A DNA stretch of 56,312 bases, counting the filler, from Basidioascus undulatus (Eukaryota): assembly GCA_000826855.1 (NCBI GenBank). It is 4 parts of 4 records of this genome, joined end to end, with 100 filler letters (N's around TTAATTAATTAA, not from the genome) between each part and the next. Parts side by side here need not be neighbours in the genome. Positions count along the whole stretch, not along the records: positions 42,315 to 56,312 come from JTLS01000765.1; 3 more parts are not named here. One strand, given 5' to 3'. A program made the position numbers and the translations under genes. Of this stretch, positions 32,226 through 53,530 are shown piece by piece. The notes under the pieces were generated by a model. That model saw only the letters and a list, made by a program, of their open reading frames with translations. It did not search any database and had not been told where the DNA came from. How positions within the stretch are numbered: the stretch's first letter is position 1; each line of letters starts with the position of its first letter.

Positions 32226-33419
32226 TCAGAAGTAGCTGTGAGGTTCGGGACGGCCGTCAGAACAGGGCGCACCTCCACGAGGAAAGAAATAGACGTACTC
32301 CGCGGACATGTCGATCTCGACCTTCTGGCCGGGCTCGAAAGCAGGCAGACCTGATACCAGAACGTTGAGCCTTATTGTCCTCCCCCCCCCCAAAAAAAAT
32401 AGAATAGTACTCACCCATGTAAGGGCAGCTCGCGCACCGGAACGCGTCGCCGAGATAGCAGCTTCCGCAGCTGCTCGTCTCGCCTTTCTTCTTCGCCTCC
32501 TCCACGGTCTTGAACCGCTTGACGCCCTCCGGCAGGTCGTCCGCCCCGTCGATCGTGACCACCTCCGCCTGCTTCTGAAGCTCCTCCTTCAGGCCGCACG
32601 AGCAGTCTGCGCACGCGCGCCGCTTCTTGGTTGTCGGGCACCGGAGCGGCGCGGCGGGCGCGGCGAGGTCGGACGCGGTCAGGAGCGAGGTCGGGTCAAT
32701 CGTGGGCGTGGACGCGCCGGAGGTGGTCGTGGAAGTGGACACGGCCCAGATGGAGCTCGCCGCAGAGGAGGGCTTGGCGCGCCTGGACTTGAGGGAGAAG
32801 GTCTGAGAGGGGGTGTAGGAAGGCTTAGAGGCGGAGAGCTGAGGGGTGGTGGGATATTGGTCAGTGCGCGAAAGTCGAAGAGATGGAAAGGGTGTACGCA
32901 CAGAGCCCTTCGGTGCAGACTCGGAGACAGTGAACCCAGCGAGCTTCAGCTCTCGCCGAAGGTCGGTCTCGGCAGCGTCGTCGACGCCTGACAGGTTCAG
33001 GAGACCGTCGGGCTTGAGGGAGGCGAGGAGGGTAGGGAGGAGCGTGGCGAGAGAGGGAGCGAGCGCAGTGTAGTCGGAGGAAGAGAGAGCGGCGTGGATA
33101 GCGGAATAGTGGGTAGCAGGAAGAGAGGTGGCTGCGGTTCCCGGACGAGAGATCAGTCGTCTGCCCGTATCCCACGCTCACGCGAGGTTCCCCAACAAAG
33201 ATTGGACTTACCGCCGTCGACAATACGGTCATACATCTGCTTCTCCACCTCCCGACCCTCGCTCAAGCGCTCCACCAGGCCCTGGTACTCCCCGTTCTGC
33301 GCGGTTGAGGGGGACCCAATCGCAAGCACCGCGCCCTGTGGCGACGGCACGGCGACGAAGCCCTTGGTGGGTGCGGAGGAGACGCTCTCCGAAGGCAGCG
33401 CGACAGCTGTGGGCGACAT
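32226..33419 (-). CDS. DRE2: Fe-S cluster assembly protein Dre2/anamorsin
   Basis: C....[12 protein letters not shown] and [31 protein letters not shown], with an N-terminal methyltransferase-like region (LKPDG). Confidence 0.95.
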
Positions 33420-50227: not shown

Positions 50228-51592
50228 ATGCTGAACTTTAAGACTGTTGCCGCTGCCGCGGCCCTCGTCGCTGCTCTTCCTGCGGCGGTCAACGCCCACG
50301 GCTATGTCAAGGGCGTCAAGATCGACGACGCGTGGTACGACGGCTGGAACCCGGTGAGTATGATGGGTTTTGGCTGCATGGGGGGGGGGGCTGCTGACCC
50401 GTGAGGATGGTTTTTGCTATGAACGATAGTGTAAGTCGTTCATATTCACTGCTCGGAACTGTTGGACACCGAAACTGACCGTCGCCTGGCAGTCGAATCC
50501 CCCTGGCAGCAGCCCCAGCCGTCCGTCATGACCCGCCGCGTTGCGACTGACGGCCCGAGTGCGTCCTCATACCCCCCCTTAGCGACATGTCCCTATCTGA
50601 ACCCGGCACGATGAACAGTTCTCTCTGCCTGGGACTCTAACCTCCGCTGCAACTACGACAACGGCGACAACAACTGGGCGGGCTTCACCGCCAGCGCCAA
50701 CCCTGGCAGCTGGGTCACCTTTTTCTGGGACCGGGTGCGCACGATAATCCTTACTCGCAATTCTAATAATGGATCGAGGCTGACTGGGAACTTTACAGTG
50801 GCCGAGCGACCACCGTGGCCCCGTGAGCGTGTACATTGCCCGCTGCGGTGACGGCCAGGACTCGTGCAACGGCTTCACGGCAGACGGCAACGTCTGGTAA
50901 GTCGTGATCCTCAGGCATCTGCTCTAGCGCACCTGTTGACTGACTCGATATTCCTTACAGGTACAAGATCGCGGAGGATGGCCTGCACGACGACGGCACC
51001 TGGGCCTCCGACAAGCTCGTCAGCCGTACGTTCCCCTGCCTCCTCTCGCAAGCCAGTCGAGCTCACCTTCTGGCATGGCACAGAGGGCGCCTCCTGGACC
51101 GTCCAGCTCCCCTGGAATATTCCCGCCGGCTCCTACCTCGTCCGCGTTGAGATCCTCGCCGTACGTCTTTATTCCCAAACGACGGCCTTAAGCCTTGAAG
51201 CTGACGATTGGGGGGCCACCCGAATGCAGCTCCACGACGTCGGGAAGCCGCAATGGTACCCGACCTGCGCGCAGATCCACCTCTCCTGGGGCAACGGCTG
51301 GCTGCCCGACGGCGCCGTCTCCATCCCCTCGATCTTCACCAGCGCGGAGGACGGCCAGAGTGCGTCGCAGTCTCCTTCCTGTCTTCCTCCATTCATCACA
51401 CATGCATGTCGCCTTTAGCGCTGACCCTCCGTCCTTCTTTCAGGCATCTACGGCAGCATCTACGAGCAGCACGGCGGGTACAAGGTCCCCGGCCCGGGCG
51501 TCGCCAAGTTCGCTGCGCGCTCCATCGAGGTCGAGGCGCCGGCGGCGCAGCACAAGCGTATGGTCCGCCAGCACCGCGAGCAGTCGCACTGA
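50228..51592 (+). CDS. AA9 (GH61) lytic polysaccharide monooxygenase, secreted
   Basis: Signal peptide ending AVNA|HGYV (His1), WPSDHRGPVSVYIARC (second His), WYKIAEDG, IPAGSYLVRVEILALH, PQWYPTCAQI (axial Tyr), YKVPGP. Reading frame needs a 1-nt exon at 50430. Confidence 0.95.
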
Positions 51593-51987: not shown

Positions 51988-53530
51988 TCACTTGCCTGCC
52001 CCGCCCGCTCTCGCTCTCCCCCACCGAATCCCGACCGCCTTGCCTTGCACCTCGCACTTGCCCTTCCTCTGAATCTCGTGCGCGGCGCGCTCCGCCCCCG
52101 CGCGATCCTTGAAGTTCACGATGCCCATCTTCCCACCCGGAGGAACCGTGACGGACTTGATGTCGTCCGGGAAGGGCATGGCCGCTGAGAGATCTTCAGA
52201 GGTTGTCGACGGCGGGAGTGGGAGGAGGTAGAGGGACGTCTGTTGCGCGGGAGCTTTGGTGAGAGGGAGGGAAGGAGAAGGAAGGAGCGACGCACGATGC
52301 TCGTGTCGGCTGGAGGAGGGGAGAGCGCCAGCGTCGGTGGCTTGTGCGGGACTGGGAGGGACGTCGCGATGCCCGCGACGGGGGGCATAGTCGCGCGAGT
52401 GGCCGGGCCGGGAGAAACAGCAGCAGCGGTGACCTTCTTCGCCTCCGCTTTCGGCTTCTCGCTCGGATACGGGGCCGTCAGCGCCAGCTTCTTGAGGATC
52501 TCCTTACCCTTGTTCTCTTGCCGTCCGAGCGCGGTCGGGACGAGGGGCTCGGAGGAGCCGACCATCTGTAGCAGTAATCAGCATGCCTGCACGGCACGAC
52601 AGACAGGGTGATAGCAGCGCACCTTCGCTTCCACGTTCTGCGCAAAGTACTGCCTGAGGATTAAGGAACGCTCCAGTCAGTCTCGGTTGCGGAGAGGTGC
52701 AAGAGCGGCACGGCACCACGCACTTGTTAATGTCGCTCGTGGGCGCGGCGGCCATTCTGCCGAGCGCCGCATCGCGCTCGTTCGCGGGCAGGGTGTACTG
52801 AAGGTCAAGGAGGGTGATCTGGCAGATCTGCATTACCCCATCGCGTCCTGCACGTCAGTCCTAGCCCGGCCGGCGCAGAGGGGAAGCCTGAGAGGATTGT
52901 GAGGGAAGAGGGAGGCGTACATTCTTCGACTTCGCGCATGTCTGGCAGATAATCGTCTTCCGCCACGGCTGGCCCTTGCCGTTCGAGATGGAGAAGACCG
53001 TGAACGGGCGGGTGCACATCTTGCACTCTGTTCCGAAAGGTTGCTGTTATCGAGACCCGCCATTCGCCGTGTCCGTCAGTTCCCGCAGAGTCGAGGTAGG
53101 GACTTCGGCTGGGTGGTGGGAGGGACTGAGGTGGATAGCGTACCTTGCGCATCTCGATGTACCGGTTCGGGCCGTACGCTGCAACCCACCAAAGTTCCCT
53201 CGCGTGAGCCGGGAGAGTCACGCCGCCGAGGTAGAAACAGGACGCACCATCCTCAGAGATAATAGGGAACTCGGCCTCCTCTTTCCACCATCAACGACGC
53301 GTTACCCCATCAGCCACCGACCGTCTCACGTCAGCTGCAGAGCTCGGAGCGTAGGGCGTGAGGCCCAGAGGACAGTGTGCGCACCCCATCCTTGCTTGTT
53401 AATGTCCGCCTGTCACCCCAAAGAGTCATACGTGAGTATATCGCGATCCAAACGAGGTGCAGGATGGGAGAAGACGCGAAGGGTGCAGCGCAGGGGCGAG
53501 ATGGACCTTCGGGCCGTAGTTGAAGCTCAT
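51988..53530 (-). CDS. SLT11: Divergent pre-mRNA splicing factor Slt11/Ecm2/RBM22
   Basis: [49 protein letters not shown]...[41 protein letters not shown]-terminal RRM ending IRWGR. Confidence 0.88.

Follow-up and report, generated by a model that had tools for sequence, protein, structure and literature searches.

Exons of a single nucleotide have been described in both fungi and plants. In Fusarium, CYP621A P450 genes contain a one-nucleotide exon (Nelson & Syed 2026, PMC12940212); according to the portions of that report available to us, this exon is a G (AG-G-GT) that forms the middle base of a Gly codon, is conserved in at least 20 orthologs and is supported by SRA reads. One-nucleotide exons of APC11 and VPS55 are found across land plants (Yu et al. 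2022, PMC8831610), and for Arabidopsis APC11 it was proposed that the flanking introns are recognized by intron definition and removed one after the other (Guo & Liu 2015, PMC4674806). Exchange of the single base for another one reportedly leaves the splicing of APC11 unaffected. The accessible text of these two plant studies describes such exons as routinely mis-annotated (PMC4674806, PMC8831610), and for VPS55 it reports isoforms with and without the single base (PMC8831610). For soybean APC11, aligners had to be supplied with the one-base exon in the form of an annotated junction (PMC8831610). In the mushroom-forming fungus Coprinopsis cinerea, a long-read annotation gave 13 exons of 1 nt in 13 genes, together with 57 exons of 2 nt and 27 of 3 nt (PMC12230235). 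This is a genome-wide count in which, in the text at hand, the genes are unnamed and no lytic polysaccharide monooxygenase (LPMO) is named. Taken by analogy as a prior, these counts would suggest roughly one gene per thousand with such an exon in an intron-rich fungus, of which the present one appears to be an example. A related arrangement, the stwintron, has been described in Pezizomycotina, where, in the excerpts available, two U2 introns within a short span are removed in consecutive reactions (PMC9024468, PMC12403724, PMC5587772).

We analyzed a stretch of 56,312 nucleotides from Basidioascus undulatus (GenBank assembly GCA_000826855.1), made of four parts joined end to end and referred to here as the window, in which an earlier note had proposed a frame-essential exon of one nucleotide. 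The exon falls in an AA9 LPMO gene at 50228-51592 on the + strand, as do all features of the gene given below. We consider it likely that T50430 is a constitutive one-nucleotide exon of this gene. Exon 1 (50228-50353) ends in phase 0 with ...GGC TGG AAC CCG at 50353 and is followed by intron 1a (50354-50429, 76 nt), which has GTGAGT at 50354, CTGAC at 50394-50398 and TAG at 50427-50429. The candidate exon, the T at 50430, comes next and is followed by intron 1b (50431-50492, 62 nt), which has GTAAGT at 50431, CTGAC at 50475-50479 and CAG at 50490-50492. After intron 1b, the sequence continues with TCGAATCC from 50493 (TC GAA TCC), and the T would be the first base of a Phe codon, T|TC. We found that the coordinates and motifs given in the earlier note for both introns and for the lone T are all present in the sequence. 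Two complete introns, each with a donor, a branch point and an acceptor, lie exactly one base apart; the base is required for the frame, and the residue that it helps to encode is conserved. Both introns are of normal length, as the note had also held: they fall within the gene's own range of 58-84 nt and within the 50-79 nt peak of the signal-defined candidate introns of the window (58/153).

Intron 1a is the less regular of the two, and none of the gene's seven other introns is as atypical. It is the only one of the eight with a TAG acceptor, and the distance from its branch A to its 3' end is 32 nt, as compared to 14-25 nt in the five other introns with a CTRAY branch motif (14 nt in intron 1b). 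A GAG is present 8 nt past the branch A of intron 1a, and a run of 11 G is found inside this intron at 50380-50390. Homopolymers of this length are a frequent place of assembly error; because the run is intronic, its length has no effect on the reading frame.

In several respects, this locus is like CYP621A as presented in the parts of the Fusarium report available to us: a fungal nuclear gene has one base between two short GT-AG introns, the two introns and the base together measure 139 nt both in F. graminearum and here, roughly double a usual intron, and both the frame and a conserved motif depend on the base, which gene predictors miss (PMC12940212). In contrast, the CYP621A base is a G in the middle of a Gly codon and is backed by orthologs and reads, whereas the candidate LPMO base is a T, the first base of a Phe codon. 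The plant exons share with the proposed LPMO exon a constitutive single base between two canonical introns; they differ in that, in the available text of those papers, they are proven by reporter constructs and RT-PCR and conserved across land plants (PMC4674806, PMC8831610). When we searched the literature for micro-exons together with lytic polysaccharide monooxygenase, we found no paper linking the two, and the same search with AA9 returned only the Coprinopsis work. The proposed exon is the first LPMO case found in the literature searched, while the phenomenon and the proposed mechanism have already been published. The description of one-nucleotide exons as very rarely reported is a fair one, but it needs updating, since the precedents, in the portions seen, now include the fungi Fusarium (CYP621A, PMC12940212) and Coprinopsis cinerea (PMC12230235).

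To describe the gene as a whole, we built a model from canonical splice signals, which has nine exons including the T, a CDS of 828 nt, and 275 codons plus a stop. Its eight introns are packed into 1.4 kb, and the six beyond introns 1a and 1b are 58-84 nt in length and all GT...CAG. Exon 1 begins with an ATG and a hydrophobic, signal-like leader, continues with His1 (HGYV...) to ...GWNP, and aligns with AA9 N-termini. The exon after the T (50493-50558) begins with the TC that completes the Phe codon, continues with ESPWQQPQPSVMTRRVATDGP, and fits the family motif [ED]x P [YW] xx P x P ... R+V..DGP. Intron 2 (50559-50618) separates it from the exon at 50619-50734, which, like the exon at 50961-51025, is placed by the gene model and by alignment with relatives. 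Between these two, the exon at 50799-50896 contains WPSDHRGP with the second copper-binding His and is followed by intron 4 (50897-50960); this exon is placed by the gene model and has a Pfam AA9 match below the curated cut-off (E 2.1e-4). The exon at 51084-51160, which ends ...YLVRVEILA, is placed by the gene model with Pfam and PDB matches, and intron 6 (51161-51229, 69 nt), which is in frame and stop-free, separates it from the exon at 51230-51359, which contains LH...PQWYPTC with the conserved Gln, Tyr and Cys and is placed by the gene model and Pfam AA9. The last exon (51444-51592) ends with a TGA stop at 51590-51592. Retention of intron 6 would add 23 residues between EILA and LH in the enzyme core without truncation.

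Membership in the AA9 family was assessed with Pfam and PDB searches of exon pieces. The piece at 51086-51358, which reads through the in-frame intron 6, matched Pfam PF03443 with 47.6 bits (E 2.4e-12, cut-off 27.8), while the piece at 50799-50894 alone scored 21.7 bits, under the cut-off. AA9 chains in the PDB also match exon pieces. When we aligned the spliced model with relatives, we found that it aligns end to end with no gap at the exon joints, and that its ...AVNA|HGYV..., WPSDHRGP and PQWYPTC segments align to the invariant H, H and Y columns of the relatives. The signal peptide cleavage site was placed by eye. We take the aligned His1, second His and Tyr to be the residues of the AA9 copper site, so that the protein has the N-terminal His, the second His and the Tyr of the family in addition to its Pfam match. 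Because of the Pfam and PDB matches, the gap-free end-to-end alignment and the His, WPSDHRGP and PQWYPTC motifs, the gene is apparently an intact AA9 LPMO. The nearest named relatives of the protein are from Cantharellales and other Agaricomycetes, and the G+C content of the window is 52-66%; taken with the eight introns in 1.4 kb, these features suggest a basidiomycete.

The reading frame gave a first measure of how much depends on the single base. As had been claimed, the T is essential to the frame: the 275-codon AA9 frame opens only with T50430, and its inclusion gives GWNP-F-ESPW in frame with the downstream AA9 motifs WPSDHRGP and PQWYPTC. If the span is instead spliced as a single intron and the T is omitted, the frame is shifted and a stop appears at codon 55, 12 codons past the junction. 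Reading through from exon 1 without splicing meets a TGA at 50402-50404, and reading onward from the T without splicing is a dead end of 33 codons. Comparison with relatives, described below, calls for one residue at this place, most often Phe, and no base other than T gives a Phe codon with the TC that follows. To see which other splice choices keep the frame, we enumerated GT and GC donors with AG acceptors before 50495 and found 14 single-intron and 40 two-intron combinations that are in frame and stop-free; the enumeration was later extended to acceptors downstream of 50495. A candidate exon of 25 nt that begins after the GAG acceptor at 50405 is excluded by an in-frame TAG and is absent among the stop-free combinations. 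The argument from the frame, as it had been made, holds in that the T restores the frame, but it had overlooked four single-intron GT/CAG choices that do so as well, one that uses a donor at 50358 and three that use acceptors at 50509, 50512 and 50518. Further in-frame single-intron combinations use GC or poor GT donors, or AAG at 50435. It is because of homology, and not because of the frame, that we reject these four choices.

To compare the junction with the same region of related proteins, we ran a profile search that returned 114 proteins and aligned 115 relatives with the model. In 67 of the 115, the nine columns around the junction are free of gaps, and 56 of these 67 have Pro at -1 and an aromatic residue at +4. 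Phe occupies the junction column in 40 of those 56, Tyr in 7, Thr in 4, Asn in 3, and Trp and Asp in 1 each. The spacing from His1 to the junction column is exactly 19 residues in 55/56, which equals the spacing in the model with one Phe, and none of the aligned relatives has an insertion in the junction columns. One relative, L001, is a complete intronless ORF on a metagenome contig of 1596 nt and reads ...GWLPFESPY... where the model reads GWNP-F-ESPW. In the best solved structure, PDB 4eis ('polysaccharide monooxygenase-3'), QPYQDPY is in register with the junction with no gap. This AA9 protein, which was compared to the window protein by sequence only, via the profile of relatives, resembles the model in having an N-terminal His and P-aromatic-x-D-P-Y at an equal distance from His1.

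These columns bear directly on the splice choices that restore the frame with a single intron. The weak donor GTATGA (50358-50363), joined to the acceptor ending at 50492, would define one in-frame intron of 135 nt with no micro-exon, and the resulting mRNA, AACCCGGTGA-TCGAATCC, would encode ...GWNP-VI-ESPW..., in which Val-Ile replaces the Phe. This product is stop-free, and the donor has a G at +5; however, it must outcompete GTGAGT 4 nt upstream as well as a perfect GTAAGT inside the intron, and the intron is about twice the usual length. At the protein level, the product is one residue over the spacing of 19 kept in all but one of the 56 relatives, at a place where no relative has an insertion, and it loses the conserved aromatic residue. 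We consider use of this donor highly improbable. Donor statistics from candidate introns of the window collected without a donor filter (405 short candidates, mostly false) were too noisy for judging GTATGA.

The other three choices join the donor at 50354 to one of the in-frame CAG acceptors in 50507-50518, which end at 50509, 50512 and 50518, and remove one long intron. The product, as the main form or as a minor isoform, would lack 6 to 9 residues (FESPWQ...) and with them a conserved motif. All three choices are in frame and stop-free, and a gene predictor could select any of them. The CAG ending at 50492 provides the first AG past the branch, 14 nt from the branch A, as compared to 31 to 40 nt for these three acceptors. 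The DNA that would be skipped (TCGAATCCCCCTGG after the junction) encodes E-S-P-W-x-x-P-x-P in frame, a motif of the family whose presence would be unexplained if this DNA were intronic, and without it the spacing shared by 55 of the 56 relatives would be lost. We therefore regard a long intron ending at one of these acceptors as very unlikely.

We also sought closer relatives in which the same gene structure might be seen. An HMMER search of every protein gave 19 hits at E <= 0.001, and the closest protein, P0002, is 47% identical to the model; because it is only 47% identical, we conclude that no ortholog is present in the libraries searched. A word-index protein search for longer proteins with the piece at 51086-51358 gave 49 candidates, none of which scored. 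P0002 and P0050-P0057, the closest relatives, are nine gene models of 220 residues on contigs of up to 156 kb. All nine begin past the ...DGP motif and so are without the His1-bearing N-terminus; this part is probably encoded by an upstream exon left unjoined by the gene caller. When we looked for the AG-N-GT layout in genomic DNA of relatives, it was found in 0/7 loci; this is a weak negative, as none of the seven is an ortholog and their identity to the model in the main tblastn segment is 23-38%. In four of these loci, which are from metagenomes (L004, L005, L007 and L008), one intron follows TTCAA, 5 nt on from the first base of the Phe codon; in the other three (L009, L010 and L011), the distance to the one intron is 11 nt, and L010 and L011 are identical there. 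Intron positions near the Phe motif thus vary between lineages. The N-terminal intron at L004:2866-2916, at the same place in L007 and also in L005 and L008, is GTGTGT...TAG and about 50 nt in length; on read-through it keeps the frame and meets no stop in L004 and L007, and its counterpart in L005 and L008 has stops.

To estimate how often such a layout would appear by chance, we defined a pattern of two short introns one base apart, each with GTRNGY, CTRAY and YAG, and searched both strands. There is one match in the window across both strands, at 50354-50492. In first-order Markov simulations of the window, 3/100 contained any match to this pattern, with a mean of 0.04. As a second control, we shuffled the interior of the 139-nt span in 200,000 trials while keeping the donor and the 3' end, and we found the full internal layout of branch, YAG, N and GTRNGY in 186/200,000 shuffles, 60 of which had T as the N. 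The loose form, AG-N-GTRNGY, was present in 5,730/200,000. By these controls, the layout goes beyond what would be expected by chance. The sequence AGNGTRNGT occurs 19 times in the window as compared to 9.4 expected, and most of these are ordinary donors.

These controls are what a reading with one long intron and a damaged frame has to contend with. By this account, 50354-50492 is a single intron of 139 nt, the internal TAG-T-GTAAGT is coincidental, and the frame is broken by a deletion of one base, whether through a mistake in assembly or sequencing (such as a TT at 50493 given as a single T) or through a real, recent frameshift that made the gene a pseudogene. The signals at the two ends of the span, 50354 and 50492, are excellent, and one-base exons are rarer than frameshifts and assembly indels. 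Against this, the internal layout would be a coincidence of about 1 in 1000 in the shuffled spans, and the intron, like any single intron of 135-165 nt here, would have roughly double the length of the others in the gene and would fall beyond the peak at 50-79 nt. The remaining exons and splice sites of the gene are all intact, and the base supplied gives exactly the majority residue of the column, the Phe of 40/56 relatives. We judge a single intron with a lost base to be unlikely. Because of the protein comparison, the two complete introns and the chance controls, the one-base-exon reading put forward in the earlier note is supported; the splicing of the mRNA itself we infer from these lines of evidence.

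A nested arrangement of the two introns was also considered, since stwintrons are documented in fungi in the portions available of two reports (PMC9024468, PMC12403724). Read as a stwintron of the [D1,2] type, the locus would lose 50354-50429 as the internal intron, so that G50353 and T50430 come together in a rebuilt donor. The junction left by this removal, CCG|TGTAAGT, does hold both GTGTAA and GTAAGT. However, with G50353 as the first intron base the frame is shifted and a stop appears at codon 61. In a stwintron, as described in the accessible text, the donor, branch point or acceptor of the external intron is split by the internal one, and no exon base between the two is retained, whereas here neither LPMO intron breaks a signal of the other, each being complete with its own donor, branch and acceptor, and one exon base is kept between them. 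We give almost no credence to a nested twin intron at this locus.

For the one-base exon, the proposed course of splicing would start from a pre-mRNA with two separate, ordinary U2-type introns of 76 and 62 nt, each recognized by intron definition, as short fungal introns usually are. Intron 1a has its acceptor within the region of U1 binding for intron 1b, and U1 pairing at the donor of 1b would cover the last bases of 1a, so that both introns could not be engaged at once. Sequential removal is thus the most likely course, in either order, and either first step would leave the other intron flanked by ordinary exon sequence, as ...CCGT|GTAAGT or as ...GATAG|TTCGAA. The mature mRNA would read ...AACCCG-T-TCGAATCC... 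(junction GGAACCCG-T-TCGAATCC) and encode ...GWNP-F-ESPW..., in which the T would restore the conserved aromatic residue 19 residues past the copper-binding His1. The suggestion that the two introns are removed sequentially is a reasonable one, and the same proposal was made for Arabidopsis APC11. In contrast, the idea that skipping of the T serves as an NMD-linked on/off switch for the enzyme is unsupported, its sole basis being the premature stop that T skipping produces.

To look for the origin of the two introns, we compared the introns of the gene with each other. The global alignment of introns 1b (50431-50492) and 4 (50897-50960) has a score of 14.5, the top of 28 intron pairs, of which the next scores 8.0, and this score was reached by 1/1000 interior shuffles. 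The two introns share GTAAGTCGT, CTGCT, CTGTTG and ACTGAC in the same order. This likeness is a weak hint that one of them may have arisen by intron duplication. Introns 1a and 1b are unlike each other, with a score of -7.5 as compared to -10.2 +/- 3.5 for shuffles, and copies of intron 1a or 1b elsewhere in the window were limited to chance matches of 9-14 nt. One could suppose that a recent intron gain left the one-base exon behind as a scar: a copy of intron 4, since diverged into intron 1b, would have inserted a single base downstream of a preexisting intron, possibly with occasional unproductive skipping of the T. We hold such a history to be rather doubtful. Under it, the junction region would look like a local hotspot of intron turnover, as the single intron of the relatives is 5 or 11 nt away, and as the tblastn match of a relative such as L004 to the model is a single segment with no break other than its one intron, where the window gene has eight introns.

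With the T as an exon, the LPMO gene would be added to the few nuclear genes in which an exon of one base has been reported, namely plant APC11 and VPS55, Fusarium CYP621A and the 13 Coprinopsis genes. Automatic annotation that overlooks the T has three poor choices: to lose the His1-bearing N-terminus, to delete the conserved surface-loop motif or to call the gene a pseudogene. Catalogs of LPMOs in fungal genomes serve enzyme discovery, so annotation errors at micro-exons matter in practice. The value of the LPMO case is accordingly a practical one for annotation; its conceptual weight is modest, and it opens no new question. With its clean splice signals, the locus would be a convenient substrate for asking how two spliceosomes handle introns one base apart.

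We also searched 14 long ORFs of the window with Pfam and found only a CIAPIN1 match and a weak RRM match. The ORF at 32260-33177 on the - strand matches CIAPIN1, which acts in Fe-S biogenesis, with E 1e-20. On the strand opposite the LPMO gene and just past its downstream end, the ORF at 51991-52503 (-) weakly matches an RNA recognition motif with E 7e-4, below the cut-off.
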